From: an uncultured Acidobacteriota bacterium
Lineage (GTDB): Bacteria > Acidobacteriota > Terriglobia > Acidiferrales > UBA7541
Direction: 5' to 3'
Length of the DNA: 64,000 bases
NCBI GenBank assembly: GCA_963846235.1
Contig: CAWJVF010000003.1
Location: 205,372 to 269,371, forward strand
Positions 21,319-63,872 of the stretch are shown here, one piece after another. The notes beneath the pieces are model-generated. The model was not told where the DNA came from. It ran no database searches and saw only the letters and a program-made list of their open reading frames with translations. The translations under genes and the position numbers were made by a program. The first letter of the stretch is position 1; each line of letters opens with the position of its first letter.

Positions 21319-21325
21319 GAGCCAA

Positions 21326-26371: not shown

Positions 26372-26475
26372 TGCTGAAGTTCGTGGCCAAGAGGGTATCA
26401 CCTAACGGGCGAGTCATGGTACGGCACTGGTACGTGCGGCGGATGGGACACCCGACTCTGCGTTATTACTATCCG

Positions 26476-30637: not shown

Positions 30638-30882
30638 CGACGCACCTCCAAACCCGACTCACGAATCCCTTCGAGAATCGGGCCGAAGTGGCGAGGCTCA
30701 ATTACGATGGTCGGGTAATACGGCTGGTAGCCGTTGTCACGTCCGATATGTTCGTGAATCCAGTTGCGGGCGGGTTCGGTGCAGGGAGTTAAGAGAAGAA
30801 TTGAGCCTTCATCTTGAATGGTGAAATCAGGACCGCTTGAAGGTGAGGTACCGCTCGATTGAAATTCATTTTTGTGGGTCAT
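30634..30882 (-). CDS. small hypothetical protein (first of three overlapping genes)
   Basis: 82 aa. ATGA overlap with the next ORF. Confidence 0.45.
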   Translation of the reverse strand: MTHKNEFQSSGTSPSSGPDFTIQDEGSILLLTPCTEPARNWIHEHIGRDNGYQPYYPTIVIEPRHFGPILEGIRESGLEVRR

Positions 30883-31343
30883 TCGTTTTTGCTCCTTTAG
30901 AGCCGCATCGTTTTACCACCGCGTCGGTTGAGGAAACCGCTCGGTTGGTGGAGGCTTTAGCCTCGCTCTGGATGCGTAATTTGTGAAGTTTATCAGCAGT
31001 TCATCAGAAAACCTATCGTTATGTTCGCACGCGATACTTGCAGCTGGCTTGACGATACTGACTTTCTAGTAGTAACCTAGTCTTCAGCATCAAGAGTAGC
31101 CCGCAAGGGCGACGCCAAACGCGCCAGCGCAACGCTGGAACCGTTGGACAAATGATGCGCCTGAAAAGGAAGCCTTATGAGAAAAAATCCCCAGACGCTC
31201 GCTGGTTCCGACCTGCCGCGCACGAATATTGCGCCGCCCTCTCACGAAGAACTTGAACCGCAGGAACTATCGACGCTGCTCAAATTGCTGATTAAAGAGG
31301 CGCTGAAGGCACGCGGAATCGAAACACGCGGGAAGAAAAATCA

Positions 31344-34549: not shown

Positions 34550-34849
34550 ATGAAAATTGAAGGTCGGCTGTGTAACTGGAATTCGCGCAAGCTTTTCGGG
34601 GTTGTTGAAGTCCGGATTCGCGAAGGCGTGGGTTATAGATTTGAAAAGTATTTTTTGACCCAGTCGCATGTTGTCTATTCGGCTGTGGAACCACCGGAAG
34701 AAGGATGCATCGTTCTCTTTACGCCCAGAACGTTAGGCAAGCTGCGACCGGGCCTGCTGCCGACTGCAACTGAGGCAGAGATTTTTGAAAGCTTGGAACA
34801 GATGAAAGCTGTGATCAGCGAGAAAGGCGGCGAAGGAAGTGTATCGTGA
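34550..34849 (+). CDS. small hypothetical protein coupled to the primase gene
   Basis: 99 aa. GTGA overlap with the start of 34846..37107. Confidence 0.45.
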   Translation: MKIEGRLCNWNSRKLFGVVEVRIREGVGYRFEKYFLTQSHVVYSAVEPPEEGCIVLFTPRTLGKLRPGLLPTATEAEIFESLEQMKAVISEKGGEGSVS

Positions 34850-44103: not shown

Positions 44104-45568
44104 CTACTGCTTTCGTGGCGCGTGGTGATCGGCTCCATTCTGATGAAGGATCAACTCTATCGCTCGTCCGCTGCTATCAGTCACAAACGTAAGCTCTGCG
44201 TTGACGATTGTCGCAAAAAATTGATGATCATTCTCCGGGAATATCTCTACCGGTTTTTGCCCCGTCGCTTGGGTCATGAAGTGATCGCCGTCACGCGTAA
44301 CCGTCATGACGAAATCAGGCGCTAATTGATAAGTGCCGACATACGTATCGAAAACATTGGGATCAATCTTGCTGATGGAATACAGCCCAGGCTGGAAATC
44401 CGGCCATTTGTATTCGAACGCGATTGTACTGACAATGTCCTCGGCAAGCTGGCCCCCGCTATCGCCGTTTGTCATCACCACGGCCCCATCGCCGCTGTCA
44501 TAAGCGACGAGGTAGCATTGATAGCCCTCATTCGAGCCACCATGTGCGAATAACGGATGTTCCTTGCCGCCGACTTGTAGGCCCAAACCCCAATCGCCCA
44601 TCCCCGGAGCTAGCATTTGACGCACCATGGTAGTGGAGAGCACGTGGTTCGACTTGCCTGACAACGCGTTTTGTATCTCCAGGGCAAAGAGGGCAAGATC
44701 CGAAGCCGTAGTCCACAGGCCGGCGGGTGCCATTTCCGGATAAACATGCGGCCCGTCTGCTATCGGCAGACCGTTGCGATCGTAAGGAATTGCCACCTCC
44801 GCCATCCGGGCAGGCGGGAGCGGCTGTTCGTAGGTGCTGTTTCATGCCGATTGGATCCAGCACCAACTCATGCATGATTTGGGGGAAGGGCTTGCCAGCC
44901 ACATCTTCCAGTAACTGCTGCGTGATCACGTACCCCCCGCCAGAATATCTCCAGATAGTCGCGGGCTCTACGTCCACGCGAATCGGTGGACTATTGGCCG
45001 GCTTCTCGCCATTCAAAACTTGAACTAGTGTTGGCAGCTGCTCGCCCGAGGCATACCCGCCAAATCCATGCACGGTGGTACCAGCGGTATGGCTGAGCAA
45101 CTCACGGAGCGTTACCTTTTTCTTGTCAGTAAATTCGTTCTCCGGCACCTTCCAGGTTTTGAGATATTCATTCACATCGTGATCAAGGTTGAGCTTTCCA
45201 GATTCGACCAGACGTAGCACAGCCATTGCCGTTACAGGCTTGCTGATTGAAGCCGCTTGAAAGAGAGTCTCGGAGGTAACTGCCGCTCCTCCGGCCTTTG
45301 TTACACCGAAGCCCTGAGCGCGTTCAATTTTCCCTTGATGAATCACAGCAACGCTTGCACCTGGAACGTGCAGTTCCTGCATCCGATCTGCGAGTTTCCT
45401 TGTTTGGCTCGACAGACTTCGGCCATTAATGAGCACAGGTGGCAGGAGGCTATCCTGGATGCGCTGTTCAATCGTGGTGTGTGTGTCGGTGATCTGAGCC
45501 GCGAACAAACCCGTTGCGATGAAGGCAACAACAGGGGCGGAAACCAAGGCTGTACGGGAGGAGGACAT
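44104..45568 (-). pseudogene. beta-lactamase-family serine hydrolase with C-terminal extra domain, frameshift near 44838-44842
   Basis: Signal peptide, SxxK as ASISKPV and HGG triad element. The frame breaks right after PIGMK at an AAA run and resumes as STYEQPLPPARMAEVAIPY. AGGAG precedes the ATG at 45568. Confidence 0.8.
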
Positions 45569-45669
45569 TTGGCGCTCCTTTGATTGATCGGAGTGGCCCT
45601 TATTTGTCCGGTCGTAATGATAGCTCAGATTGACTGTCGTTTTAGCACGCCACACGAGCAATGCGCCTT

Positions 45670-50490: not shown

Positions 50491-50563
50491 GGCACTGCGT
50501 ATCGGCACCTGGCTTTTTCGGCGATTCCCAGTTGCCGAGAATGCCGTTTTTCGGGAGTTAGAA
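50491..50563 (+). repeat. cassette-type repeat copy A
   Basis: TATCGGCACCTGGCTTTTTCGGCGATTCCCAGTTGCCGAGAATGCCGTTTTTCGGGAGTTAGAA aligns almost base for base with copy C. Confidence 0.7.
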
Positions 50564-50597
50564 CAGTTCGTTTGGAGGTGAGTCTCACCAGAAACAA

Positions 50598-51773
50598 CTA
50601 TCGCGCTGGCCAATTCCATGCGGGAAGGTCCATTTTCTTCATCCCCGCAATTGAAGTTTCGCCGAGGTTCTTTTCAAGCGTGATCGAATGGCAAGGAGCC
50701 TGATCCCGGAGAGCCACGATAAGCGGCGCTGCGTGCGTCACGACAACGATTTGTGTGCGTTTAGATGTCTGCGCAATCAAGCGCCCAAGCGGGGGCAGAA
50801 GGTCTGGGTGGAGGCTTGTCTCAGGCTCATTCAACACCATTAATGCGGGCGGTCTTGGGGTTAAGAGTGCGGCAATCCAAAGTAAGTACCGCAGCGTCCC
50901 GTCCGAAAGTTCCGCAGCATCCAAGGGTCTCAGCAATCCATGCTGTTCCATCGTCAGGGCAAATCGCCCGGAGTTAACCTCTATGGACAAACGACTGCCC
51001 GGAAAAGCGTCTGCGACAGCAGCAGCCAGTGCCTCACCGTCGCCAATCTCGCGGATAGTCTGAACCGCTGCTGCGAGATCGGCTCCGTCGTTACCGAGCA
51101 CTGGAGTGTGCGTACCAATCTGGGGAGAGCGCGCTGGTGCATCGGCATCTGTGCTGAAGTGGTCGTAGAAACGCCAGGCGCGTATGGATTCGCGCAGAGT
51201 TAACATCTCCGGTGCGTTTCTGGGATCGGCAACGTGAGTCATCATGCTATCGAAAGCGGAGAGGTGATCCGTCACCAGATTCCAGTCTTGCCCATCTCCA
51301 CGAATGCGCACGAGAGGTCCCTCCCGATCCACCAGCATCGTCGAGGGGCGAAGCGTTGGCCCATGCCAAATGCACTCGCGCTTAATCTCAGGATCAAGCA
51401 TGAACGCCGAAGGCTTCGCTTTGTCGTAGGCGGGCAAACCCAGGTCAATCAAATATCCGAACTCGTCGCCTGCAAAGCCGAGCCGAAGGTTTACCGGCTT
51501 CTTTCGTCTGGTGCCTTGAACGGGATACTCGCCCTTCTTCATAGAACGCGAAATCGATTCAGGACCAGCCCAAAGCGTCGATTGAAGGCCACCTTCGTGG
51601 GCCAGTGAGGGAACTACTCGGCCTTGCGCCGTGTCCGCCAGAAGTCGCAGTGCCCGGTAGAGACTCGATTTCCCGGTTCCGTTCGCGCCAGTGATGACGT
51701 TCAGCAACTGCAGGGGAATAATGAGATTCCGCAAGGAGCGATAGTTGCCGATGGCAAAGGTCGTCAGCATCAA
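50598..51773 (-). CDS. ABC/SMC-like ATPase (AAA_21-type) without a nuclease domain
   Basis: Walker A ITGANGTGKSS near the N-terminus. Walker B and D-loop LMVLNEPETSLHP. 391 aa. Confidence 0.8.
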   Translation of the reverse strand: MMLTTFAIGNYRSLRNLIIPLQLLNVITGANGTGKSSLYRALRLLADTAQGRVVPSLAHEGGLQSTLWAGPESISRSMKKGEYPVQGTRRKKPVNLRLGFAGDEFGYLIDLGLPAYDKAKPSAFMLDPEIKRECIWHGPTLRPSTMLVDREGPLVRIRGDGQDWNLVTDHLSAFDSMMTHVADPRNAPEMLTLRESIRAWRFYDHFSTDADAPARSPQIGTHTPVLGNDGADLAAAVQTIREIGDGEALAAAVADAFPGSRLSIEVNSGRFALTMEQHGLLRPLDAAELSDGTLRYLLWIAALLTPRPPALMVLNEPETSLHPDLLPPLGRLIAQTSKRTQIVVVTHAAPLIVALRDQAPCHSITLEKNLGETSIAGMKKMDLPAWNWPAR

Positions 51774-51802
51774 AGGTGATCGATCTTGGGAGTTCTAGGA
51801 AA

Positions 51803-53167
51803 CTATTGGATGGGAATTTGCGGACCGCCCAACAGTTTTGCATTCAGTAAGCCACCGGAGAAAAGCATTTCGTCCAAAGCCGAAGTCAGATCGTCGAGCG
51901 TGAGCTGCCCAGCCTGATAATTGTCTAAGGAAAACTGTGCCGAGCGGCGCATGAGTTCCTTGATGAAGGCGCCGCTTGCATTTTCTGTACGGCGCACGAT
52001 CTCTTGAACCACATTTTCAGGAACCTGGAGACCGCAGGCGTAAAGATGCACAAGTTGTCGGCGCCCTGCGGCGTCGGGCAGAGGGAACTCAATCGCCTGG
52101 TCGATCCGGCCCGGGCGCGATGCGATAGCGGCTTCGAGTTGTTGCGGGCGGTTGGTTGTAAGGACGAAGATTACCTCCGCGTCTTCGCGCAGACCATCCA
52201 TCTCATTTAGAAGCTTGTTTAATAGACTTTCCTCACAGGCACTGTCCATGGATTCACGAGAGCGGGCGATAAGATCGACGTCTTCGATGACAACGATGGA
52301 GGGTTGAAGGAACCTAGCGAGTTGGAAATAATGATCTAGCAGACCTACCTGTTCAGCGGTGATCAAAAGCGTAGTGTGATCGGGCAGTTGGCTCGCCAGA
52401 TAGTGAATTGTGTGAGTTTTCCCGGTTCCAGGCTGGCCATAAAAGAGCAAGCCCTTCTTAACGGGCATTCCAAGCTTTCTCAGTTCCCCGCGTTGTCTAA
52501 TGAATTCGGAAACGTTGCGTTCCAGCAACTGAAGAGTCTTGGCAGGGAGAACTAATTCACGACGGCTCACAGAACGGAGTTTGTGAACACGGACGCTGCC
52601 GGCTTGGCCAGAGTAATTGTCCGTCTGCTCTAGAGATATTACCTTTCCACGGTACGAAGTGGCGCGTTTAACGAGTTTCTCGATCTCGTCGAATAGCCGA
52701 CGTGAGAGAGCGGCACCCTCTTCACCGGGTGGCACAGCAATCTCCAGATGCGTCCCACTGTCACGGCCATAATTGATCGCAGGGGTGAGTAAAAGTGCAA
52801 ACCGAAGGTCGTTGCTCCTGGACAGCCAAAGACCATTGCTCAAACAGCGCGCAGGCACTAGTTCACCGATATCGACTTCGAAATGTTGTAGAGGTGCAAC
52901 GAGTGCTGGGTAATTGTCGATTGTCAGAAGCTCGGAGAATGTCATCGTTTCATGTCCGAAACGCCGGTGCAGGCCGATCAGCTCGGCCGTAAATTCTTCC
53001 CCAAATATTTTGGTGACGGCGAACTGCAGGTCAATCCGCGCAGAGACTGGAAATTTGCGACTAGCCGTAACCAACTGCTCTAGAGGCTGCTTCCTGAAAT
53101 GTCGCGCTAGTCTATGCGCAACGAGTGGTGGTGCGTTCGTTTTCTTGTTTCGCTTTGGGGTTCTCAC
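51803..53167 (-). CDS. classical AAA+ ATPase with a novel ~230-aa N-terminal domain
   Basis: Walker A GQPGTGKT, Walker B IVVIEDVD, second region of homology TTNRPQQLEAAIASRPGRID. The start is uncertain. GTG at 53167 was chosen because the 585-aa track ORF would overlap repeat copy B and the next gene. Confidence 0.75.
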   Translation of the reverse strand: MRTPKRNKKTNAPPLVAHRLARHFRKQPLEQLVTASRKFPVSARIDLQFAVTKIFGEEFTAELIGLHRRFGHETMTFSELLTIDNYPALVAPLQHFEVDIGELVPARCLSNGLWLSRSNDLRFALLLTPAINYGRDSGTHLEIAVPPGEEGAALSRRLFDEIEKLVKRATSYRGKVISLEQTDNYSGQAGSVRVHKLRSVSRRELVLPAKTLQLLERNVSEFIRQRGELRKLGMPVKKGLLFYGQPGTGKTHTIHYLASQLPDHTTLLITAEQVGLLDHYFQLARFLQPSIVVIEDVDLIARSRESMDSACEESLLNKLLNEMDGLREDAEVIFVLTTNRPQQLEAAIASRPGRIDQAIEFPLPDAAGRRQLVHLYACGLQVPENVVQEIVRRTENASGAFIKELMRRSAQFSLDNYQAGQLTLDDLTSALDEMLFSGGLLNAKLLGGPQIPIQ

Positions 53168-53227
53168 ACTAATATTTTGCCGTATGCGGCCAAAATGGGA
53201 AGTGTTTTGGGATGAGTACACACTCAA

Positions 53228-53287
53228 TTGACAACCTGTGGGAGCGCGGAAAGTCACATTCCGATAATCCCGTTTCTCAGGCGCTAT
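53228..53287 (+). repeat. cassette-type repeat copy B
   Basis: Right arm CACATTCCGATAATCCCGTTTCTCAGGCGC. The left arm is degenerate. Confidence 0.6.
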
Positions 53288-53320
53288 CTCGACCCCACAT
53301 GTGACGGCTATACTTTTCTG

Positions 53321-53980
53321 ATGGAGCAGCCCATTCACGTTGACCTGACCACAGCCTCGCTTGACGAGTTCGTCCTGTTTCTTTTTGACCGAGAGATACC
53401 CGCTTATTCTCAAAAGCAAGAGCCGTGGTATTGGCATGTGGAAGTGGAATTTGATGCAGCGAAGATCTGCACCTATTACGTGCAGTTGTTTCTGCAGCCG
53501 GAATTTCTGCTGACGCGTTTCACAAAACCTCAGCTTGAAGAAGGCTTCTGGGCCGTACAAGGCCCGAATCTAAGCTGTTCCGTGCAAAGGCTAATCGAAG
53601 ACTCAAGCCTACCGTTATCGCGTCGGGAAGAATGCATCCGTTCCATGTTTGATTTGTACAAGCGTCTTTTTGCGACGAAGCCACTGGATACTTCAGTTCA
53701 GATGTGGTGGGACTCCTTATGCTACGACTGGCATTGCGGGAACAAACAGCGCGAGCGGGGTGGTGAGGATTTGGAATTGCAAGAAGTCTTTTTTCAAACT
53801 CTCGTTAGGGTGCTTTCGATTGACTCAGAGATTTGTCAGCAAGCGGCCCTTCATGGATTGGGTCATCTCCATCATCCACAAACGGCGGAACTCATCGAGC
53901 AGTATCTTCGAGAACACCCTTCGTTACCGAAAGAGCGCAAAGAATATGCCCTTGCCGCTGCTAGGTTTGAGGTGCAGTAA
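53321..53980 (+). CDS. hypothetical cassette protein
   Basis: Start MEQPIHVDL just after copy B. 219 aa. Copy C begins 36 nt after the stop codon. Confidence 0.55.
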   Translation: MEQPIHVDLTTASLDEFVLFLFDREIPAYSQKQEPWYWHVEVEFDAAKICTYYVQLFLQPEFLLTRFTKPQLEEGFWAVQGPNLSCSVQRLIEDSSLPLSRREECIRSMFDLYKRLFATKPLDTSVQMWWDSLCYDWHCGNKQRERGGEDLELQEVFFQTLVRVLSIDSEICQQAALHGLGHLHHPQTAELIEQYLREHPSLPKERKEYALAAARFEVQ

Positions 53981-54015
53981 GCAGGATTCATTTGATCCTA
54001 AAATGTAAGACTCAG

Positions 54016-54099
54016 CGAACTCCTGATAAGTCTTATCGGCAACTGGATTTTTCGACGATTCGCAGTTGCCGAGAATCCCGTGTTCCTCCAAGGTTGGCT
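54016..54099 (+). repeat. cassette-type repeat copy C
   Basis: CGAACTCCTGATAAGTCTTATCGGCAACTGG, 16-nt loop, GCAGTTGCCGAGAATCCCGTGTTCCTCCAAGGTTGGCT. The arms are imperfect reverse complements. Confidence 0.75.
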
Positions 54100-54175
54100 G
54101 AGCGCTCAATTCGAGTTGGCCTGTGGTTGGAAAAGATTGCAAAATTGGGCCCTGATGCATTCCGGAGAAAATGTA

Positions 54176-54619
54176 ATGTCAGTTCCTACGGAAGCAGACT
54201 GGGGCGACTATCAATCCGATCTGGACCAGAATTATGCTCACAAGATATTCGCTGGCCGCACAAACCAAGAGATGCTTCCTCGCTTTCGCAACAATGTAAT
54301 TGAGGCAACCGATGAACTGCGATGGATGCCGGAAGTGCCGTTTCGATATTACATACTTGGCTTTCGGGATTTCGTGATGGCAGGAGAATTTAACCACTTG
54401 GAGGCTTCGGACGCGGCAAGTTGCTTTATACGTCTTGTTTTGGAGAAACTCGAAAAACAACCAAGCTATATCCTGCCTGTCATGCCGCAGTTACTTCCGG
54501 CTATTCAGCACGTCGCGATGAATCAGGCGTCATTTGAAGCAAGTGAGGACATTTATGGAAATTTTCAAGAGAAATTGGGGCGCATCGAAGCGCTCTACGA
54601 CACCCTCGGTCGCTCGTAA
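54176..54619 (+). CDS. hypothetical cassette protein
   Basis: Start MSVPTEADWGDY with GGAG 9 nt upstream. 147 aa. The TAA stop codon lies inside the first bases (GTAAC) of copy D. Confidence 0.55.
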   Translation: MSVPTEADWGDYQSDLDQNYAHKIFAGRTNQEMLPRFRNNVIEATDELRWMPEVPFRYYILGFRDFVMAGEFNHLEASDAASCFIRLVLEKLEKQPSYILPVMPQLLPAIQHVAMNQASFEASEDIYGNFQEKLGRIEALYDTLGRS

Positions 54620-54700
54620 CTCCTTATAAGTCGCATTTCCGAAACCTGGCTCTAGGCAGAAAAGCCAGTTAGCGATAATCCCGTTTTCCGGGACTTGGGC
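54618..54700 (+). repeat. cassette-type repeat copy D
   Basis: AACTCCTTATAAGTCGCATTTCCGAAACCTGGCT, loop, AGCCAGTTAGCGATAATCCCGTTTTCCGGGACTTGGGC. 18 of 32 arm positions pair. Confidence 0.75.
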
Positions 54701-54889
54701 TTACAATGTTTCCCATGTCCTCCGGAGGTCTAGCTCCTGGTATTTGCTTTATTCTCGCTGCGGGCCGTTGCGGCGATCTCTCTGTGTGGCGTTAGGGTTC
54801 GCGATTCGAGACGCCGGCTATAGGCTGCCTAATGCGAGGGTATTCGTTGCGGCTGGCAATCACGCGAATATCCCTGACCGGGCTGTAAT

Positions 54890-55387
54890 ATGCACAGTCT
54901 AATCCTTCCAGAGCGAGTCACGATTCAACTTGTCGACAAAAATAAGGTTCCGGTTAAGTTATCCAATATCTTGTTTGGGATTAGGGCTTTTGCGAGACGC
55001 AAGAACGATTTTAATCTCCAGCCATTTCCAACCGGCAATGACGGACTCGTTACAATCACCAGCAAGGAATTAGAAGCAGACGTTACCGCGAACTATGACT
55101 CGGGCGTAATGGACTATGCGCACATTAGCGACTGTTCACCATCGGTAGAAATACGGATTCTAACCGAGGAAGAGATAAAAAGTGCCGTGGACGCCAGGAA
55201 AATATGGACAAAACTCTTGGCCGGAGAACGGGATCGATGGAAATCGTTAGAACAACTGCTGACGCTCTATAGAAATGCCAACAATGGAAGACTGCTCGCC
55301 GACGAGTGCCCTCCTATGCGCGTAGAGTGGAGAGAGGGTGGAGCTGAATACTCATACAAGTTTGTTGTGGCATACAAGTACCCGTGA
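54890..55387 (+). CDS. hypothetical cassette protein
   Basis: 165-aa ORF followed by repeat copy F. Confidence 0.5.
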   Translation: MHSLILPERVTIQLVDKNKVPVKLSNILFGIRAFARRKNDFNLQPFPTGNDGLVTITSKELEADVTANYDSGVMDYAHISDCSPSVEIRILTEEEIKSAVDARKIWTKLLAGERDRWKSLEQLLTLYRNANNGRLLADECPPMRVEWREGGAEYSYKFVVAYKYP

Positions 55388-55454
55388 TTTTGGTGGTGAT
55401 CCAAGAGGAAATGTTCTCTGTCTGGTTGTGAGCGCTGTCGTCGAGATCCGATGA

Positions 55455-55512
55455 CGGATGGCACCAAGAAATCGCGGCGCACACTCCGATAAGACCGTTT
55501 CTCTGGAGCGGA
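55455..55512 (+). repeat. cassette-type repeat copy F
   Basis: Right arm CACACTCCGATAAGACCGTTTCTCTGGAGCGG closely matches copy B. The left arm is degenerate. Confidence 0.55.
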
Positions 55513-55605
55513 GTCGCCTCCGCCAGTTTCAACAGCGGAACATTTGCGTTTGTAGGACGGCACTGAGTAGAAAATGATATTAGAATCAGAGCAAGCGTGC
55601 CGGGA

Positions 55606-55836
55606 TCAGGCGGATACAGATTCGAGTTCGTGGGCAAAGACCCGTTGGCATTTCGGGTCAGCGCACGCTGCGGCGACGGCACGCCCCATTCCCATCTCCA
55701 TCCCAAACACAATGGCGTTGAGCGGGCTCTCGGTGTACACATGAGCGTTTGGGAAGACTATGAACAGCAGAAAGGCTAACCACGTCGAGAGCCAATACAG
55801 TCCAGCCGTGAGTAGGAAATTTCGAAGGTTCGACAC
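55606..55836 (-). CDS. possible small membrane protein
   Basis: 76 aa with two hydrophobic segments. Sole plausible ORF between copies F and E. Confidence 0.3.
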   Translation of the reverse strand: MSNLRNFLLTAGLYWLSTWLAFLLFIVFPNAHVYTESPLNAIVFGMEMGMGRAVAAACADPKCQRVFAHELESVSA

Positions 55837-55938
55837 AATTCATTCTAGAACGGTGTCAGACAGGTGGACGGCGTTACGAATTAGCCAGTTTCCAGCTGTG
55901 TACCCTGCCGGGCTCGGCTTTCGTAGCGTCTATCCGCG

Positions 55939-56013
55939 ATAAGTCCTGTGAAGTCGGGTTCTCGGAAACTGGGATTTCCCGCATTCCGAAGATCGCGTCT
56001 ATCGGGAGGTGGT
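55939..56013 (+). repeat. cassette-type repeat copy E (uninterrupted reference for the IS target)
   Basis: GATAAGTCCTGTGAAGTCGGGTTCTCGGAAACTGGGATTTCCCGCATTCCGAAGATCGCGTCTATCGGGAGG. Confidence 0.75.
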
Positions 56014-56334
56014 ATCGGGCTGCATTGAATCACTTCTTTTGTGGTTGGTTCTCGAATAAAAGTACCCTGATAGGGCTAGAGCCAAAGAAATAAGCGCAAC
56101 AAGTGCGATCCATTCGTCACGCGGATGCTGTAGCTGATAAGGAATATAAGGGTGGTTAGTCTGAAGGTCACACGACATGTTTGAATAGTCGAAACTCCCG
56201 TGAAGAGCAGACAGGCATCGGTCGACCATCAGCCATTCACGCGAAAAACGATAGGTGACAGAGATTAGAGCGCCCCCAGCAAGGAAGGCGAGAATCAGCC
56301 GCCAACATATCCTCATGATCGAATGAGACACCAT
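55999..56334 (-). CDS. small integral membrane protein
   Basis: Hydrophobic segments ICWRLILAFLAGGALISV and WIALVALISLALALSGYF. The start is uncertain (56334, 56316 or 56403). Confidence 0.45.
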   Translation of the reverse strand: MVSHSIMRICWRLILAFLAGGALISVTYRFSREWLMVDRCLSALHGSFDYSNMSCDLQTNHPYIPYQLQHPRDEWIALVALISLALALSGYFYSRTNHKRSDSMQPDTTSR

Positions 56335-56398
56335 TCTTGCCCTACAAGTTCCCCAAAACGTCAGGAGATCGTCGAAAGCATAACCTTTGGCAAACGAT

Positions 56399-56428
56399 GC
56401 CAAGTCCTGCTAAGTCGGTTTTTCGGAA
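56399..56428 (+). repeat. cassette-type repeat copy H, left arm (split by IS copy 1)
   Basis: GCCAAGTCCTGCTAAGTCGGTTTTTCGGAA aligns with the left arms of copies D and E. Confidence 0.75.
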
Positions 56429-56676
56429 TGTATGGTCCGCCGCCGAGTTGCAAGCGGAAAGATGAGCTTGGCAGTTGGTCTGCGCCAATGTATTCGGCCT
56501 TTGGTGGAGTCAATGACTCCTGGCCTTGATGGACATCCGCTCGCCTTCGCCCCTATAAACTGGACGGTCTGGTTAGGACCTTTTCCGAAAGCAGGTTCCG
56601 AAAGCGTGGGATCGACCCATTGCCATCAACTCTCCGCAAGCAAACCGGGAAGGAACTTTTTTCTAAACCGGGATTT
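56429..56676 (-). ncRNA. candidate bridge/seek guide RNA locus in the IS 3' non-coding end
   Basis: 248-bp non-coding end conserved in both IS copies. It contains two TTCCGAAAG motifs (56583-56591, 56596-56604) and AAACTGG (56557-56563) matching the target core, and AATGTAT (56487-56493) matching the IS left junction. No structure was computed. Confidence 0.35.
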
Positions 56677-57708
56677 TTAGGTGGACACAGCAAGGACGGG
56701 AGCGCGATAGCGTTCCCCCTTGCACAACACGGCCCAGGCCATTCGGACTAGCTTATTGGCCAACGCTACGATGACCACGTTCTGGTGTTTGCGAGCCAAC
56801 AATTGAGCCAACCACGAACTGAGACCCGGAGCCTGCCGGTGTCGCTGCTGCAGGACGCTGCGTGCGCCCTGCACGAAGAGTCGTCGTAGGTAGGAGTTGC
56901 CGCGTTTGCTGATGCCCAGTAAGGTTTGCTTTCCTCCGCTGGAATGCTCGCCGGGCACCATGCCGATCCAGGCCGCTAGGTCTCGACCTCTGCCAAACGC
57001 ACTCCCGTTACCCACGGCAGCGATCACGGCGGTGGCCGTGACTGGGCCCACTCCTGGGATGGTGGTGAGTCGCTGGCAGGCCTCATCCTCTTTGGCTCTT
57101 TCCAGGATAGCCACATCCAGCTGATCAATGCGTGCGGAGAGTTGCTCGAGTTCCAGCTTCAGCTGAGCCAACAACAGCCGAAACGAACCCGATAACGGCA
57201 ACTCGGCATCTTCCAAGATCCGCGGCAGAGCTTCCTCCACATAACGTCGGCCTTTGGGTAGTGTCAATCCACGTTCTAGAAGAAGACTGCGGATCTGGTT
57301 GACCACCGCCGTGCGTCGCATGACCCAGCGTTCCCGCACGCGATGCAGCGTTTGCAAATCCAGCTGCTCCTCGCTCTTAATTGGCACAAAACGCATCCGC
57401 GGCCGTTGCACTGCTTCGGCTATAGCTTCCGCATCGATGTAGTCGCTCTTGTTGGTCTGCACGTACGGCTTCACGTACTGCGCGGGCATCAATCGCACGT
57501 CGTGTCCCTGATCGCGCAGAGCGCGGCCCAGAAAGTGCGAGCCACTACAAGACTCCATGCCAATCAACTGCACTTGCAAAGTCGCGGTGAAGGCCAACAA
57601 CTGCCCGCGGGAACATCTCTTGCGAATTACCACCTTCCCAGTCGAATCCAAACCCACCAGATGGAAAACGGTCTTACCCAAATCGATGCCGAGTACGTGA
57701 AGTTTCAT
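56677..57708 (-). CDS. IS110 family DEDD transposase/recombinase
   Basis: MKLHVLGIDLGKTVFHLVGLD N-terminus and C-terminal IPGVGPVTATAVIAAVGNG...GISKRGNSYLRRL motif. AGGAGG upstream of the ATG at 57708. Confidence 0.9.
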   Translation of the reverse strand: MKLHVLGIDLGKTVFHLVGLDSTGKVVIRKRCSRGQLLAFTATLQVQLIGMESCSGSHFLGRALRDQGHDVRLMPAQYVKPYVQTNKSDYIDAEAIAEAVQRPRMRFVPIKSEEQLDLQTLHRVRERWVMRRTAVVNQIRSLLLERGLTLPKGRRYVEEALPRILEDAELPLSGSFRLLLAQLKLELEQLSARIDQLDVAILERAKEDEACQRLTTIPGVGPVTATAVIAAVGNGSAFGRGRDLAAWIGMVPGEHSSGGKQTLLGISKRGNSYLRRLFVQGARSVLQQRHRQAPGLSSWLAQLLARKHQNVVIVALANKLVRMAWAVLCKGERYRAPVLAVST

Positions 57709-57769
57709 GGAATGCCTCCTGGCCCCGGACTCTACACTCAAAGAGTCTCGGCGGCGGACCATCCCATTA

Positions 57770-57822
57770 ACTGGGATTTCCGAATCCCACATTCCGAAAA
57801 TCCCGTTTGTCAGGAGTTGGCT
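57770..57822 (+). repeat. cassette-type repeat copy H, right arm
   Basis: ACTGGGATTTCCGAATCCCACATTCCGAAAATCCCGTTTGTCAGGAGTTGGCT. The outer end CAGGAGTTGGC is the complement of the left-arm start GCCAAGTCCTG with one mismatch. Confidence 0.75.
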
Positions 57823-57949
57823 TTAGTCAAGTGAGACTGTACTTCGGAACAGTATAGGTTTCGACAGTGATTCAGGACTTTAATCTCAAAGCCTCACTCT
57901 CCCAGTTAAAATCGACTCTCGTGGCGATTCGCAGGCGGAGGGACGACGA

Positions 57950-58432
57950 ATGAATGCGACCCAAACGATGACATCTCCCGTCCACACGGCTCACAAGCCT
58001 ATTCGAGTGTTTTGGAAATGGTCTTTCTTCATCACGGCCATAGTGCTTGCTTTCTTTATGTGGCAGTGCGGTTCGGGACTCCTTCAGGGTCGGCGTTCGT
58101 CGAACGAGGCCGTTCGACAATTCCACCAACAGCTAAATGCTGGTGAGTATGAGCTAATCTGTCAGGAAGCCAGCGAGGGCTTTACGCGTTCGGCCAAACA
58201 CGATGAATTAGTGAACTTCCTCAATGGGGTGCATACGAAACTCGGCTCTGCAGCAAGCGAAAGCCTCCTCAATATCGGCGTCAATGCGAATACAAACGGA
58301 ACTTTCATCACCACTCGCTATAACACGCAATTCGCAAATGGGTCAGCTGTTGAGACATTCACTTGGATAAAGTCAGCGGGCACCTTGAAACTACACGGAT
58401 ACAACGTGCAGTCTCAAGCGCTCCTCAAGTGA
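57950..58432 (+). CDS. membrane-anchored hypothetical cassette protein
   Basis: N-terminal TM segment FWKWSFFITAIVLAFFMW. 160 aa. Confidence 0.5.
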   Translation: MNATQTMTSPVHTAHKPIRVFWKWSFFITAIVLAFFMWQCGSGLLQGRRSSNEAVRQFHQQLNAGEYELICQEASEGFTRSAKHDELVNFLNGVHTKLGSAASESLLNIGVNANTNGTFITTRYNTQFANGSAVETFTWIKSAGTLKLHGYNVQSQALLK

Positions 58433-58543
58433 AAAGGGTCCTTCTCCAAGAAGGCCGCACCGCCAGACCTACCGATTGTGTAGGAGTCGGTTGGTACTGG
58501 TAGTCTAGGCTGAGATTCGGCCATACCTTCAAACGAGGACACG

Positions 58544-59122
58544 ATGCCATATTCGTGGCGGCGGCTGATATTGGGACTCGTGGTTGGTGGCTCTGTTTTT
58601 TGGGGTGTCATGACACTCCTGCGAACGTCGCGTTTGATTCCGCCACCCCCAAGAGATACGCAAGCCAACACTTGTCTATCTGGCAGTACGTGTATCGTTA
58701 CGTTGGGAGACGAAAGCTATACGGTACAGGGACCTTGCGACGTCACAAGCGTCTCTTCAATCAGTACTTGCCATGTGCTGTTCACTCTTCCGAAGGGCAC
58801 GATCGACGATGCCCGTCTCGCCATGCTCCCGTTCATGGTCTTCTTATGGGCTTTAGCGTGGTGTCTGCGCTATATGCCACCGCGCATCACGAACCCATGG
58901 ATAAAGGTGCCGTTAATCGTGTTATTAGCCGTTGGAACTGGCGGGCCCGCGATAGGTGAGCTCGTCGTTTTTCGTGCGAGGGCTGGAATTAAAGGAGAAC
59001 TGTTCAAAGGAGACCCCTTTTCGTTCGCAATTTTTATTGCTGGAGAACTTCTCGTCCTCTGTATCATGTTCAGCAGCGCAACCGCTCGGAAGAAAAGACA
59101 GCAAATTATAAAACCCGCCTAA
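58544..59122 (+). CDS. integral membrane hypothetical protein
   Basis: 192 aa with four hydrophobic segments. Confidence 0.5.
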   Translation: MPYSWRRLILGLVVGGSVFWGVMTLLRTSRLIPPPPRDTQANTCLSGSTCIVTLGDESYTVQGPCDVTSVSSISTCHVLFTLPKGTIDDARLAMLPFMVFLWALAWCLRYMPPRITNPWIKVPLIVLLAVGTGGPAIGELVVFRARAGIKGELFKGDPFSFAIFIAGELLVLCIMFSSATARKKRQQIIKPA

Positions 59123-59186
59123 GAAGTGTACGTCTGAGACCTCGACTCTGGAGCCATCGCAAGCCCGCGGGCTCTTCTTTTGAAAC

Positions 59187-59216
59187 GCCAAGTCCTGGAA
59201 AGTCGTCTTTCCGGAA
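59187..59216 (+). repeat. cassette-type repeat copy I, left arm (split by IS copy 2)
   Basis: GCCAAGTCCTGGAAAGTCGTCTTTCCGGAA. Confidence 0.75.
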
Positions 59217-60546
59217 TGTATGGTCCGCCGCCGAGTTGCAAGCGGAAAGATGAGCTTGGCAATTGGTCTGCGCCAATGTATTCGGCCTTCAGTGGAGTCA
59301 GCGACTCCGGGCCTTGATGGACATCCGCTCGCCTTCGCCCCTATAAACTGGACGGTCTGGTTAGGACCTTTTCCGAAATCAGGTTCCGAAAGCGTGGGAT
59401 CGACCCATTGCCATCTTTCCGCGAGCAAACCGGTGAGAGAACTGTTTTCTAAACCGGGGTTTTAGGTGGCAAGAACGGGAGCGCGATAGCTTTCGTTCTT
59501 GTACAACACCGCCCAGGCCATTCGGACCACCTTATTAGCCAGTGCTACGACGACAACATTCTGGTGTTTGCGAGCCAGCAATTGCGCTAGCCAGGAGCTA
59601 AGACCGGGAGCCTGCCGGTGTCGTTGTTGCAAGACGCTGCGGGCGCCTTGTACGAAGAGGCGTCGCAAGTAGGAGTTACCTCGCTTGCTGATGCCCAGTA
59701 ACGTTTGCTTTCCGCCGCTGGAATGCTCGCTCGGCACCATGCCGACCCACGCCGCCAAATCTCGGCCCCTTTTAAAAGCGCTTCCGTTACCAACCGCAGC
59801 AATCAGAGCGGTGGCAGTGACTGGGCCCACTCCTGGAATCGCGGTGAGTCGCTGACAGGCGTCATCCTCTTTGGCTCTTTTCAGGATGACTGCATCCAGC
59901 TGATCGATGCGTGCGGAGAGTTGCTCGAGTTCCAGCTTCAGCTGAGCCAACAGCAGCCGAAACGAGCCCGCCAGCGCAACTCTGCATCTTCTAGGATCCG
60001 TGGCAAGGCTTCCTCCACATAACTTCGGCCCTTGGGTAATGTGAATCCGCGTTCCAAAAGGAGGCTGCGGATCTGGTTCACTACGGCCGTGCGTCGCATC
60101 ACCCAACGCTCACGCACTCGATGGAGAGCTTGCAGATCCAGTTGCTCTTCCGACTTGATCGGCACAAACCGCATCCGCGGCCGTTGCACCGCTTCCGCTA
60201 TAGCTTCCGCATCGATGTAATCGCTCTTGTTGGTCTGCACATAAGGTTTCACGTACTGCGCGGGCATCAACCGCACCTGGTGCCCCTGATCGCGCAGAGC
60301 GCGGCCCAGAAAATGCGAGCCACTACAAGACTCCATGCCAATCAACTGCACTTGCAAATTCGCGGTGAAGGTCAGTAACTGTCGGCGGGAACATCTCTTG
60401 CGAATCACTACCTTCCCAGTCGAATCCAAACCCACCAGATGGAAAACCGTTTTACCCAGGTCAATGCCGAGTACATGTAGTTTCATGGAATGCCTCCTGG
60501 CCCCGGACTCTACACTTCAAAGTCTCGGCGGCGGACCATCCCATTA
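59217..60546 (-). mobile_element. IS110 family insertion sequence, copy 2 (about 1.33 kb), defective
   Basis: Collinear with copy 1 across its whole length with scattered substitutions. Same ends (TGTATGGTCCGCC ... GGACCATCCCATTA). Confidence 0.85.
59462..60486 (-). pseudogene. IS110 family transposase, frameshifted
   Basis: Split into 182-aa and 214-aa ORFs. Compared with copy 1 there is a 1-bp deletion in the segment encoding AELPLSGSF (about 59975-59990). Confidence 0.85.
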
Positions 60547-60600
60547 ACTGGCTTTCCGCTGATTTCCAGTTGCCAAAAATCCCGTTTCGCAGGACTCGTG
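60547..60600 (+). repeat. cassette-type repeat copy I, right arm
   Basis: ACTGGCTTTCCGCTGATTTCCAGTTGCCAAAAATCCCGTTTCGCAGGACTCGTG. Confidence 0.75.
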
Positions 60601-60829
60601 CATCCCGGCAAGAACAAACTTCCAGCTAATCGTTCTGTTCCACTTCCATTGTCAGCCTAGCACAGCCAGTGCGAAACTGTAAGGCTGCGCTTACGAGCGG
60701 AATTCACCAGAGTGCCTCACTGGCGATAACGATGGTCCCAATCGGCTAGGTCTATACTAAGGCCCGTTTTAGCGTCACACGGTTTTTATATCTCCGGCGG
60801 GTTGTCATAGCAGGTTCGTCGCCGAACAT

Positions 60830-62554
60830 CTAATGCTTTGCGGTAGCACCCTGCTCGTGAGATTCCATGGTGCTCCCCATCAGCACGATCAGGCCGTCCG
60901 CAAGAGTGCCCCGCCAACTCAAGTAATCGTGCCCACCTACGAATTCCTGGTAGTGAACTTCATATCCTTTAGCGAGGAGCACATCGCGCATGTGCCGGTT
61001 AGGCACCAAAATGGCACCACCGTGCCCTGTTACATCAATTTCATCGCTGCCCGCATCGATATAAAATCGCAGCGGCAGATGAGGACTCATGATGTATTGA
61101 TTTGCCAACCAATTGGGTTCGGCATTCGGATCGAAATCATCGGGGTTGTCATTCCGTGGCGGCGTCCACCAATAAGAGCCTGATTGCGAGAGAATGTTTC
61201 CGAATGTCTCCGGGTGACGGAATCCCGCATAAGCAGCCGCGAGCCCACCATAACTCGACCCGCCAACGACGGTCTGCTGCGGATCATTGGTGATGTTAAA
61301 CAATCGCCGTACCCATGGAACTAGCTCAAAGTTCAAAAAATCGGCGAAAGTGGGGTTGCAAGGAAGCTCGCGGGATCGCGCATCTCCGTTGGGATTGTCG
61401 ATCAGCACCGCAACCATTCGCGGAATCCGATTTTCAGCAATAAGGTTATCGAGAATTGTAGGTGTGGGAATAATCTTGTCGTCCGTGTAAGGCTTTTCAT
61501 CAAAGAGAACAATCAGACCGTAAGGTTTTGCATCACTTGAATATCCCGGTGGTGTATAGACCGTGACTTCACGTTCATTCTTCAGTAGGGCGCTTTTGAA
61601 CTGGTGTTTCTCGACTTTACCCGTGGGCACGCCTTTTCGTTGTGCGACCCACGGCTGAGTTGGTGCGCCGGGCATTTCAACGGCTGAGACACCCAAGTGC
61701 TCGGGAACGTCGGGATTTAACGGATTTATGAGCCAGTGTTTCTGGTTGAGCGGGTCCACTTGGGCCGCCGCGAACGCGAACATGGTGGTCTCGTCAGACG
61801 GGTCCTGGAATGGACGAATTGGAGGACCATTTACGACGAGTTGGTAGATAAATCTTTTCCGTTTATCTACCGGCACGCTTCTGTACCAGACATTCGTTTC
61901 GCCAACTCGAATCAGCCGATAATCATCCGGGCGTTCAACAACAAAGGGATACCACAACACCGTCACGTTTTTAGTGTTTGCGTTTCCCTGCCACAGAAAC
62001 GTGACGAGCATCTCCTTTTCATTGCCTTCTAGCGGCTCAATCAAGGGCGCGCCCTTCGCTTTGACATCTTGCCAGAACGTTTCGATAGCATTTGCCTGCC
62101 CCTGATCTAGGGCGGTCCTGAATGCCTTGATTCGCGGGCTCTGGTATTTGTCGCCGACTGGAGCGATTCGATCTGCCAGGGCGACGATTCTTGTGAGCGT
62201 AATTGTGTACGATCCCTCTTTTGTAGTCGCGTCCAGAGCCACTTCGAGCCGGTATCCACCTGGATCATCGGCAATGAACTGAATTTTCCGGCCCGGGCCA
62301 TCGAAGCGGAAACCACGCACTTTGCTGCCGGAGGGACCGTAGATGGTGATGATGAGTTTGCTTCCATGCGTCACGACATTCGTTTCAGCCAGATCGCCTG
62401 CTTTCAATGTCAGAGAGTACGAGTCGGTTTTCGGGGCACTCAATGTGCCATCATGAGCTTTCCCGCCTTGGAGTTCGGTATCTGCTGCCCACGATCCTAA
62501 GCAGCTAACGAGGAGAAGCAGGACGGGTGTGAGGAGGGAGAATCTCTTGAGCAC
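60830..62554 (-). CDS. exported esterase (enterochelin-esterase-like alpha/beta hydrolase) with N-terminal beta-sandwich domains
   Basis: Signal peptide. GGSSYGGLAA nucleophile elbow. C-terminal His region GGHDY. Confidence 0.8.
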   Translation of the reverse strand: MLKRFSLLTPVLLLLVSCLGSWAADTELQGGKAHDGTLSAPKTDSYSLTLKAGDLAETNVVTHGSKLIITIYGPSGSKVRGFRFDGPGRKIQFIADDPGGYRLEVALDATTKEGSYTITLTRIVALADRIAPVGDKYQSPRIKAFRTALDQGQANAIETFWQDVKAKGAPLIEPLEGNEKEMLVTFLWQGNANTKNVTVLWYPFVVERPDDYRLIRVGETNVWYRSVPVDKRKRFIYQLVVNGPPIRPFQDPSDETTMFAFAAAQVDPLNQKHWLINPLNPDVPEHLGVSAVEMPGAPTQPWVAQRKGVPTGKVEKHQFKSALLKNEREVTVYTPPGYSSDAKPYGLIVLFDEKPYTDDKIIPTPTILDNLIAENRIPRMVAVLIDNPNGDARSRELPCNPTFADFLNFELVPWVRRLFNITNDPQQTVVGGSSYGGLAAAYAGFRHPETFGNILSQSGSYWWTPPRNDNPDDFDPNAEPNWLANQYIMSPHLPLRFYIDAGSDEIDVTGHGGAILVPNRHMRDVLLAKGYEVHYQEFVGGHDYLSWRGTLADGLIVLMGSTMESHEQGATAKH

Positions 62555-62675
62555 TGTGTCCTCCTATGAGCACGAAGGATTTGGCGCAAGACTATCACGG
62601 GTTGGTCTAAACCGCGGCAGAGCGTGGGCCGGGGCCACAGGTTCTGGAACTGACAATTACGCAGAAGCTTCTCGG

Positions 62676-63137
62676 CTATTCAACGCGGACCAGTTTTATG
62701 ACTGCTCCCGATGGCTTCTGAGTCAACACCAGCGCCTTCCCATTTACGGCGAATTCGTACTGGTTGCTTGCGCCTATGACGAACGCGCTCTTTGCCACCG
62801 TGGCTTTCGTTGTCAGCATGTTGGCGGTCACTGTGTACGTGCCGGAATTGAGGTAAATCGCATTAAAGACCGCTACCTTGTCAGCGTCGGTTGCCTTGTC
62901 ATTTGAGGGATAGTTGGGCAGTGGTCCCGTGCCGTTGATCCTCATGAAACTGTAGTGTTGTTCCGTAAAAATGTACAGACCCGGCTGAGGATTGGTGATC
63001 GGCGGCCTGCTCGCGTCGTCGATCTCCGTAACCCTCCAAGCTCCCACGAGCGGATTTCGCGTTGCCGGAGATTGACCATAGATTGTCACCGCAACAGCAA
63101 ACAACACGAGAAGTGTAATTCCGATCAGTCGGCGCAC
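62676..63137 (-). CDS. exported lipocalin-like domain protein
   Basis: Signal peptide, then LVGAWRVTEI..., typical of the lipocalin-like domain family. 153 aa. Confidence 0.55.
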   Translation of the reverse strand: MRRLIGITLLVLFAVAVTIYGQSPATRNPLVGAWRVTEIDDASRPPITNPQPGLYIFTEQHYSFMRINGTGPLPNYPSNDKATDADKVAVFNAIYLNSGTYTVTANMLTTKATVAKSAFVIGASNQYEFAVNGKALVLTQKPSGAVIKLVRVE

Positions 63138-63185
63138 TGGAGCCTCCTTTCCGTGTTTCTAGCCTGACGTTACTAAAGGTATTTG

Positions 63186-63440
63186 TTAGCCCTTCGCTTT
63201 CGCGGCCTCGCGCTTGCGCTGTAGGAACGCTTTCCGAACGCCACGACCGATCTTTGCCTTCATTGCCGCCGACATCGGCATTGATACGCGTGTACGTGTT
63301 GCCCCACCGTTGGCACTGGGGCCGCTGCCGTTTGAGAGAATCGCAATGGCTTTGTCAATGCGTCCGAGTTCACGTGCGAGTTCGCTGCGCCTGCTCTTCA
63401 ACGTCGAAATTACATCGTTCATTCGGGTTGTTGCCTCCAC
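63186..63440 (-). CDS. small basic hypothetical protein
   Basis: 84-aa ORF with no motif. Confidence 0.4.
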   Translation of the reverse strand: MEATTRMNDVISTLKSRRSELARELGRIDKAIAILSNGSGPSANGGATRTRVSMPMSAAMKAKIGRGVRKAFLQRKREAAKAKG

Positions 63441-63628
63441 TGAGATTCTATCCTAAACGCGACGCCAAAATAAGAAGTGGAGGCGGAAGCCGATGAATAG
63501 CGGGCCTCTAAGCGCCGATTGAATCTCGGGTCCGGGTCGGCGGCCTCTTCATCTTTCCTAATGCTTCCTGAAAATGCTCGGGTCATGGCTGTGGGCCAGT
63601 TGTGGGAAAATGGGATTTGGAGGCAAAC

Positions 63629-63805
63629 ATGGCGGCTAAAAGAGAACCCTCCAAGAAGGTTGTTGATAAGCACGCGAAGTTTCTTGCGGCATGGGAAGCG
63701 GCGGGATTCCCGGACAAATTTGAGTACGAAGGAACAACGCTTAATAACGTGCGGTCAACCGCTGACTGGTACCGAGAACAAAAGCTAAGAGCCGCCAGGG
63801 ACTAG
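63629..63805 (+). CDS. small hypothetical cassette protein
   Basis: Start MAAKREPSKK. The TAG stop codon lies inside the start of repeat copy G. Confidence 0.35.
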   Translation: MAAKREPSKKVVDKHAKFLAAWEAAGFPDKFEYEGTTLNNVRSTADWYREQKLRAARD

Positions 63806-63872
63806 GCATTCCCGAAGTGTGGCCCGGCTGAAATCCCAGTTTCCGGAAATCCCGTTTCTCAGGCACTAGGAT
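63800..63872 (+). repeat. cassette-type repeat copy G
   Basis: GACTAGGCATTCCCGAAGTGTGGCCCGGCTGAAATCCCAGTTTCCGGAAATCCCGTTTCTCAGGCACTAGG. Confidence 0.7.

Follow-up and report, generated by a model that had tools for sequence, protein, structure and literature searches.

A stretch of 64,000 nucleotides from the genome of an uncultured Acidobacteriota bacterium (contig CAWJVF010000003.1, positions 205,372 to 269,371; the whole stretch is called the window below) carries near its end an array of nine short repeats, which lie at 50.5–63.9 kb of the window, all on the + strand, and span 13.4 kb. The array is best explained, at a probability of about one half, as one of an Acidobacteriota-specific family of tyrosine-recombinase-type sites that delimit small accessory modules. 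The anatomy of the sites, their polarity, the shuffling of the sequences beside them and the layout of an associated recombinase gene together suggest that recombination takes place at them. To our knowledge, integrons are the only well-established system for stockpiling and reshuffling single-gene cassettes. In how it works the array resembles an integron, or the dif modules of Acinetobacter, and it is a member of neither.

Nine repeats in one orientation had been proposed at this place in a sequence-only reading of the window, and both a scan for the repeat core and a profile of its right arm bear this out, coordinates included. The 15-nt core CCGADAATCCCGTTT, allowing up to three mismatches, has 17 matches in the window compared with 5.3 ± 1.9 in 100 dinucleotide-preserving shuffles, none of which reached 17. 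The nine copies rank as the best of these matches, with starts at 50535, 53261, 54069, 54672, 55486, 55986, 57794, 60573 and 63843, and the right-arm profile has no match at E < 0.05 in positions 1–50,000. The array is not distinguishable from the rest of the window by base composition. The orientation of the repeats is independent of gene strand: four of the nine copies come after minus-strand genes. Two caveats of the sequence-only reading also hold, in that GTT is present at the right end of three of the nine copies (AAC and GTT ends occur together only in copy C), and that left arms are poor or missing in four, being degenerate in copies B, F and G and truncated in copy A.

The unit of conservation is a right arm of ∼35 nt, (G)CCACATTCCGAtAATCCCGTTTcTCAGGACTTGGC, which is conserved in sequence between species and has the dyad core CCGATAA-TCCCGT-TTATCAGG. 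The half-sites of the core, GATAA and TTATC, stand around a 6-nt spacer; roughly half of the right arms have TTCTC in place of TTATC. About one copy in five also has a left arm, which lies inverted 10–22 nt upstream with identical half-sites and a different spacer (GTCnnC), so that its core reads CCTGATAA-GTCnnC-TTATCGG. The full element consists of GCCAAGT-CCTGATAA-GTCnnC-TTATCGGAATGTGG, a loop of ∼10 or 20 nt, and CCACATTCCGATAA-TCCCGT-TTATCAGG-ACTTGGC; from this sequence, the left arm is the reverse complement of the right arm except in the 6-nt spacer, and the pair makes an imperfect palindrome of 85–100 nt. Sites of the dif type have the form ATAA-N6-TTAT, and the 59-base elements of integrons comprise two ‘simple sites’, each made of inverted binding boxes around a spacer. 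Judged by its sequence, the GATAA-N6-TTATC dyad of each arm has the form of a tyrosine-recombinase core site, specifically that of dif.

The window array is not alone, and its repeat family is common among Acidobacteriota of soil. When one genome per species was scanned for the exact pattern CCGRDAATCCCGTTTNTCAGG, at least 113 stretches with a right arm were found, nearly all in metagenome-assembled genomes (MAGs) of Acidobacteriota/Terriglobia and often on many contigs per genome (at least nine in the MAG MFD05513.bin.2.62). Across the family the base at the right-end GTT position is C in 56 cases, G in 41 and A in 20. No description of the repeat family was found in the literature, in a search that was incomplete and so gives weak evidence of novelty.

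Some forward open reading frames (ORFs) end within or just before a copy. As first read, the TAA stop of the ORF at 54176..54619 lies in the GTAAC of copy D (54617–54619) and the TAG stop of that at 63629..63805 lies inside copy G (63803–63805). Complete copies can form a stable hairpin; without the insertion sequence (IS) that interrupts it, copy H folds into one of ∼80 nt at −25 to −27 kcal/mol (DNA parameters). The leader of a recombinase gene contains one copy, at a possible operator position. All this would suit a cis-acting RNA or DNA signal, unrelated to recombination, that recurs behind genes: a terminator, for instance, an operator, or a hairpin that stabilises mRNA. Such a signal is hardly likely at all, considering that four of the nine window copies are preceded by the 5′ end of a minus-strand gene, that most family members lack one arm and therefore cannot form the hairpin, and that the repeats have no T-run and no Rfam family; it would also leave the polar clusters, the shuffled flanks and the association with a recombinase unexplained.

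These three features carry the case for recombination sites. Orientation is uniform in 53 of the 63 sources with two or more right arms, where ∼20 would be expected at random (computed from the counts), and the copies in multi-copy sources are 0.2–3 kb apart. When pairs of copies were compared for shared flanks, 44 shared the downstream flank only, 22 the upstream flank only, and one both. In the upstream-sharing pairs that do not involve an IS, divergence begins exactly after TCAGG or TCGGG, and one such pair, with 99% upstream identity, has the rare CGGG variant in common. A 237-nt module has been duplicated at 99.6% identity, together with both of its flanking sites, in two arrays of the same genome; a 765-nt gene module is common to two genomes at ∼96%, and stands there behind different right-arm alleles. 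The flank-sharing pairs that mobile elements do not explain indicate an exchange of modules. The sequence-only reading had allowed that modules between the repeats might prove conserved and syntenic in relatives; this is not so, and its third suggestion, a repeat-delimited cassette system different from the integron, survives with the backing of the polar clusters, the shuffled flanks and an Xer-like recombinase beside the sites.

Clustering of the ORFs from the repeat loci gave four recurrent groups: IS110 transposases in 23 loci, IS30-type transposases in 14, an IS91-type element with a recombinase of its own, and a tyrosine recombinase of 313–319 amino acids in six. The gene of the last starts 67–99 nt from an inverted right arm, and right arms on both sides of it point away from it. 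The adjacent core, including its rare CGGG variant, stays with the recombinase, whereas the sequence past this right arm differs in every locus, the change falling exactly at the core edge. These first loci had been picked by the repeat, so the association was also tested conversely, in metagenome loci picked by the recombinase protein alone. A protein scan found at least 554 relatives in soil and peat metagenomes. Among the loci kept, most of those whose recombinase is ≥∼78% identical have right arms at equal relative positions, and in several others the site can be seen, although an IS splits it or its divergence puts it beyond the profile. In locus L195 a right arm starts 9 nt past the stop codon of the recombinase, and an IS30-type element interrupts the upstream site. 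The best-scoring models for the protein are XerC (119 bits) and XerD (111 bits); both scores are far under the cutoffs, and the enzyme is therefore not the housekeeping one. On the integron-integrase model TIGR02249 it reaches 48.8 bits, with a cutoff of 265. Public annotations name its relatives XerD or integrase.

From these elements a mechanism can be proposed. A dedicated Xer-like recombinase, encoded elsewhere beside a right arm, would bind the cores, and the host XerC/D may contribute. Recombination between directly oriented right arms would then excise, capture and reshuffle the modules between them, with polar arrays at many chromosomal places as the outcome. In the window no recombinase accompanies the array, which makes it the equivalent of an attC cluster that lacks an integrase. 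Sequence-guided or site-specific elements then use the conserved sites as safe landing pads: those of the IS110/IS1111 type here, IS30-type elements and group II introns elsewhere.

Several findings weigh against this interpretation. The window contains no tyrosine recombinase detectable by tblastn with the Xer-like protein, and a caveat raised at first reading, that none lies left of copy A, holds. Many of the flank-sharing pairs are due to an IS or intron inserted in the repeat. The mapped junctions differ in position: some pairs have theirs at the outer edge of the right-arm core, one pair in the inner arms, and another 70 nt before the next site. None falls at the 6-nt spacer, which is the exchange point expected of Xer, and a crossover there is thus contradicted by the mapped junctions. 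Between otherwise syntenic arrays, no module was found to have been cleanly gained or lost; the search between loci gave nested IS only. For 50 left/right pairs, gathered irrespective of pairing, the complementarity of the inner stem is 9.6 of 14 positions, compared with 9.1 for shuffled partners (z = 2.7); because the two arms of one element co-vary this weakly, a folded-strand site is unsupported. Relatives of the recombinase at 66–70% identity have a related upstream site, and no arrays were found around them. In these relatives (L142–L193) the conserved upstream site reads ..CCTGAnAAACGCCcCAGGGTGCGATAGACC.. and has no more than CCTGAnAAACG in common with that of the array-associated clade. 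The recombinase module is multi-copy within a genome (L036/L047) and may therefore itself belong among the mobile elements for which the repeat is a target.

The dispersal of the family over many contigs per genome is also compatible with a selfish repeat resembling repetitive extragenic palindromic (REP) sequences or miniature inverted-repeat transposable elements (MITEs). The Xer-like gene between inverted right arms would be the autonomous form of such an element, with the arms and palindromes as its non-autonomous remnants. These would accumulate in flexible, IS-rich regions and mark accessory DNA, and they would not move the genes between them. The recombinase is indeed flanked by inverted right arms whose outer ends face outward, as terminal inverted repeats do, and its module is duplicated within genomes; solo left arms (∼105) and solo right arms (∼229) far exceed pairs (50); and both the failure to find cassette gain or loss and the weak covariation of the hairpin agree with a repeat of this kind. 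It also has precedents, as REP sequences, bacterial interspersed mosaic elements (BIMEs) and MITEs are likewise short imperfect palindromes, present in many copies per genome, and are specific targets of IS110-family IS. On the other hand, independent insertions of a MITE would not be expected to share an orientation to the extent seen, nor in the window to do so irrespective of gene strand, nor to leave 50 kb without a copy and put nine into 13.4 kb. The change exactly at the core edge beside the recombinase, with the CGGG variant of the core retained on the recombinase side, is not accounted for, nor are modules common to loci behind different right-arm alleles, and the ends of the element lack target-site duplications. 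Unlike REP sequences, BIMEs and MITEs, the repeats form polar clusters confined to accessory regions and are conserved phylum-wide; and the associated enzyme is a tyrosine recombinase, where REP sequences and BIMEs have a transposase of the RAYT (REP-associated tyrosine transposase) type, although no search for RAYT genes was made. A selfish repeat is thus possible but unlikely, and it stays alive because the junctions are non-uniform, the covariation is weak, pairing of outer ends and module gain or loss were not seen, and distant relatives of the recombinase have no arrays.

The array shares one trait with integrons plainly, namely same-orientation sites (nine of nine window copies on the + strand) that follow one or a few ORFs of variable content. 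The sequence-only reading had gone further and suggested an integrase-less attC cluster or part of a rearranged chromosomal integron. It had also listed four outcomes that would speak against an integron: repeats scattered through the genome, no match to an attC model, no IntI, and modules conserved in related strains. Three of the four were found, which leaves both integron options unsupported, although the first was found only in part: the family does lie on many contigs per genome, but its copies are clustered in one orientation and the first 50 kb of the window has none. The window gave no IntI by tblastn with IntI1 (only a lead), and no Phage_integrase domain was detected by Pfam in the array ORFs or in more than 30 of the largest ORFs of the window. 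Nor was IntI found in ∼1.4 Mb of related loci with the repeat or the recombinase, whose tyrosine recombinases score 48.8 and 177 bits on TIGR02249, under its cutoff of 265. Matches of IntI1 in tblastn proved to be short recombinases of an IS91-like element, present as 100% identical copies, and were rejected as an array integrase because they are not adjacent to the repeat. In locus L015 (1481–6565) the IS91-type transposase and its short tyrosine recombinase form a 2.5-kb head-to-head inverted duplication, and identical copies of the recombinase segment occur in L034 and L050.

The ends of attC sites follow the patterns RYYYAAC (R″) and GTTRRRY (R′). For Acidobacteria the published consensus is GCCUAAC-AacuC-GUUgAAGC ... 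GCUUAAc-UCGagC-GUUAGGC (Ghaly et al. 2021, PMC8352920). The conserved blocks of this model, re-implemented as position weights and thus an approximation to one taxon-specific model, were both negative on all seven of the seven uninterrupted copies, and the best score in the window, 9.2 bits, falls inside the range of the shuffles (7.9–14.9). One could still suppose a divergent integron remnant, that is a cluster of attC sites lacking integron-integrases (CALIN), whose attC sites are of an unusual Acidobacteria type and are recombined as folded bottom strands by an IntI encoded elsewhere. The anatomy of the element is attC-like in its two simple sites, in its variable loop and in the mismatches of its central bubble; its outer ends, GCCAAG.../...(C/G)TTGGC, resemble the GCCTAAC/GTTAGGC of the consensus; the junction lies at or just past CAGG|AC|TTGG, where an attC site would have G|TT; and the IS stand antisense and the group II introns of related loci on the bottom strand, both of which have been reported for attC. 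These resemblances are outweighed, and a CALIN is very unlikely. Besides the absence of IntI from the window and the related loci and the negative attC blocks, the sequence is conserved between species while the structure hardly co-varies, which is the opposite of attC, and the majority of copies are lone right arms. For the outer 7-mer of the left arm, tried also as a partner for the previous cassette, pairing with its own right end (3.52 of 7) or the previous one (3.44) is no better than with a random one (3.28).

Compared with integron arrays and CALINs (PMC4889954), then, the sites that are proposed here to delimit modules are alike in their common orientation, in their spacing of 0.5–3 kb, and in separating promoter-poor ORFs, one or a few at a time, whose function is mostly unknown. 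Further likenesses to attC are the make-up of two inverted simple sites, the mismatches of the central spacer, the variable loop, and a junction near the outer right end; CALINs likewise lack a recombinase, and attC sites likewise receive antisense IS1111-type IS and bottom-strand group II introns (PMC3001079). In contrast with integrons, the recombinase that goes with the repeats is of the Xer-like kind and does not pass the IntI model, AAC/GTT ends are not conserved, and there are many arrays per genome, which point both ways from the recombinase gene. Unlike attC sites, the repeats conserve sequence rather than structure between species, mostly have one arm, and do not match the Acidobacteria attC model.

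The sites of dif modules measure 28 bp: a 6-bp spacer separates two 11-bp arms, which have ATAA...TTAT at their inner ends. The dif modules of Acinetobacter (PMC6449649, PMC13141974) share with the array a dif-like ATAA-N6-TTAT core, cargo of defence and toxin type, inversely oriented flanking sites (here the right arm of one element and the left arm of the next), and a spacer whose identity sets which sites could pair; dedicated IS families target their sites as well (PMC10132070). Unlike them, the array is chromosomal and belongs to Acidobacteriota instead of lying on Rep_3 plasmids, and a dedicated Xer-like gene abuts a site of the family, whereas dif modules rely on host XerC/D alone. Its sites are mostly direct repeats of the right arm without strict C/D alternation, the ‘inner’ module of paired sites is a loop of only 10–22 nt, and the junctions lie off the spacer. 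Membership fails on account of the crossover position and the missing alternation of sites.

Two of the window copies, H and I, are interrupted at an identical point by an IS, with the junctions ...CGGAATGT|ATGGTCCGCCGCCGAG ... CTCGGCGGCGGACCATCCCATTA|ACTGG.... The transposase of the first (56677–57708, −) matches Pfam Transposase_20/DEDD_Tnp_IS110, and 16-bp inverted repeats lie at or up to 3 nt from the left end and 7 nt from the right end. With a DEDD transposase, subterminal inverted repeats and a fixed target, the two IS belong to the IS1111 group of the IS110 family, as the sequence-only reading had it. Related elements occur in ∼12 related loci, with identity up to 95% to copies in Acidobacteriota/Terriglobia MAGs, and the junction with the left arm seen in the window, ...CGGA/TATGT|ATGGTCCGCCGC, recurs in L006, L070 and L110. 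IS1111-type IS are known to target other conserved repeats besides attC, and their insertion consequently does not discriminate among the readings. The non-coding ends of both IS copies (56432–56676 and 59220–59461) hold AAACTGG, which spans the insertion point GGAA|ACTGG, and the intact IS also has TTCCGAAA twice, the reverse complement of TTTCGGAA in the target; these segments could be the guides of a seekRNA or bridge RNA for the left arm of the repeat.

Other elements use the repeats at fixed positions of their own. The IS110-type IS enters the left arm in its inner part; IS30-type IS insert at AATCCC|G, with left arms hit as well; a further element is found at CCCGTT|CTATAAA; and an ORF-less group II intron lies on the bottom strand between CACATT and CCGATAA. 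The intron (RF02003 and RF00029) occupies L050 1647–2357 (−), L021 1388–2096 (+) and L065 2–712 (−), each time on the bottom strand of a right arm and at one fixed position. A 766-nt flank common to these three loci, which had been considered as a conserved side of the attI type, turned out to be this same intron. Another ORF-less group II intron, RF02005, adjoins a repeat copy in L003 (1572–1790, −). In attC sites, group IIC introns are found on the bottom strand and IS1111-type IS are antisense (PMC3001079); the antisense IS and the bottom-strand intron are thus a property in common with attC, not a mark of membership.

Within the window the left boundary of the array is copy A (50491..50563, +), with a right arm of core 50535–50555 (CCGAGAATGCCGTTTTTCGGG) and a left arm cut to its inner part (TATCGGCACCTGG). 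The module between A and B (50598..53170, −) consists of two minus-strand genes, for an AAA_21/HEC-01A-like ATPase (50598–51773; HEC-01A-like E = 4.7e-49) and an AAA+/IetA-like ATPase (51803–53170), and this cargo looks defence-related. Copy B (53228..53288, +; core 53261–53281) is a right arm alone. It is followed on the + strand by a 219-aa ORF without family match (53321..53980) and by copy C (54016..54099, +), which has both arms, an indel in its core (54069–54089) and the ends GCGAAC...GTTGGCT. A 147-aa ORF, again without family match (54176..54619, +), runs into copy D (54618..54700, +; both arms, core 54672–54692), and a 165-aa ORF of the same description (54890..55387, +) separates D from copy F (55455..55513, +), which is a degenerate right arm alone (core 55486–55506). 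Copy E comes next (55939..56013, +), with a left arm and a degenerate right arm (core 55986–56006).

In copy H the left arm (GCCAAGTCCTGCTAAGTCGGTTTTTCGGAATGT; 56399..56431, +) is separated from the loop and right arm (57770..57822, +; core 57794–57814, right end GTTGGC) by the first IS (56432..57769, −), whose transposase is described above; the subterminal repeats of the IS read ATGGTCCGCCGCCGAG, and it stands antisense to the array. The module between H and I (57950..59122, +) contains two ORFs, one of 160 aa (DUF4019) and one of 192 aa without family match. Copy I is split in the same way, its left arm at 59187..59219 (+) and its loop and right arm at 60547..60600 (+; core 60573–60593) being parted by the second IS (59220..60546, −), which is ∼85–95% identical to the first and has a broken transposase frame (ORFs 59462–60106 and 59938–60486). 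The last module (60830..63805) has four ORFs on mixed strands: an esterase (60830–62554, −), a lipocalin-like protein (62676–63137, −), and ORFs of 84 aa (63186–63440, −) and 58 aa (63629–63805, +). Copy G (63800..63872, +; right arm with core 63843–63863, degenerate left arm) lies 128 nt from the end of the window, and the array may extend past it. Most of the cargo, at one or two ORFs per module, is small and without family; such ORFs, together with the defence-like ATPase pair, are typical cassette cargo. Apart from the IS, the cargo has no homologue among 193 related loci.

The integron integrase is thought to derive from an Xer-like enzyme, and we know of no intermediate. A wider proposal, which is put forward tentatively, is that Acidobacteriota hold an undescribed cassette system parallel to integrons, in which polar chromosomal arrays with composite dif-like sites, built of two simple sites as 59-base elements are, are served by an Xer-like recombinase that lacks the IntI domain and acts from a site beside its own gene. 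If so, either cassette capture was invented here independently, or the system is a present-day analogue of the Xer-like ancestor that has been proposed for integron integrases (PMC4792948); it would be abundant in soil, judging by the number of recombinase relatives in soil and peat metagenomes. A second, independent or ancestral-type example of cassette capture, in a highly abundant soil phylum, would explain part of the turnover of accessory genes in Acidobacteriota, defence genes included, and would mean that tools based on IntI and attC miss such arrays. The system is directly testable with one recombinase and a 21–35-bp site. Should the repeats instead be inert, MITE-like remnants, they would still be a phylum-wide landing pad for at least four kinds of mobile element.

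Elsewhere in the window, a stretch of lower G+C at ∼16000–44000 (0.51–0.52 vs 0.54–0.59) with island-type genes, which lies upstream of the array, probably represents a genomic island of its own. The genes of this type comprise an ATP-dependent DNA ligase fragment (14943–15584), Schlafen AlbA_2 (15659–16264), DUF5131 (17125–17952), a DNA polymerase beta thumb (17984–18523), a trypsin-like protease beside a TPR-CHAT protein of 1691 aa (20122–26401) and a Prim-Pol protein (34846–37107). A SAM-I/IV riboswitch aptamer, RF01725, is found at 30875–30980 (−) with 59.7 bits (gathering score 41.1), and a second one in the related locus L050 (3477–3588). Between the island and the array, a beta-lactamase-family gene (44104–45661, −) is present as two overlapping ORFs, of which 44528–45661 covers profile positions 3–187 and 44104–44805 covers 216–316 plus DUF3471; the split may reflect a frameshift or a pseudogene. 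Near the start of the window, two divergent paralogous genes with a multihaem cytochrome c domain of the photosynthetic-reaction-centre type (CytoC_RC; 978–3571) stand ahead of a YfiR/HmsC-like gene and one for a hybrid histidine kinase.

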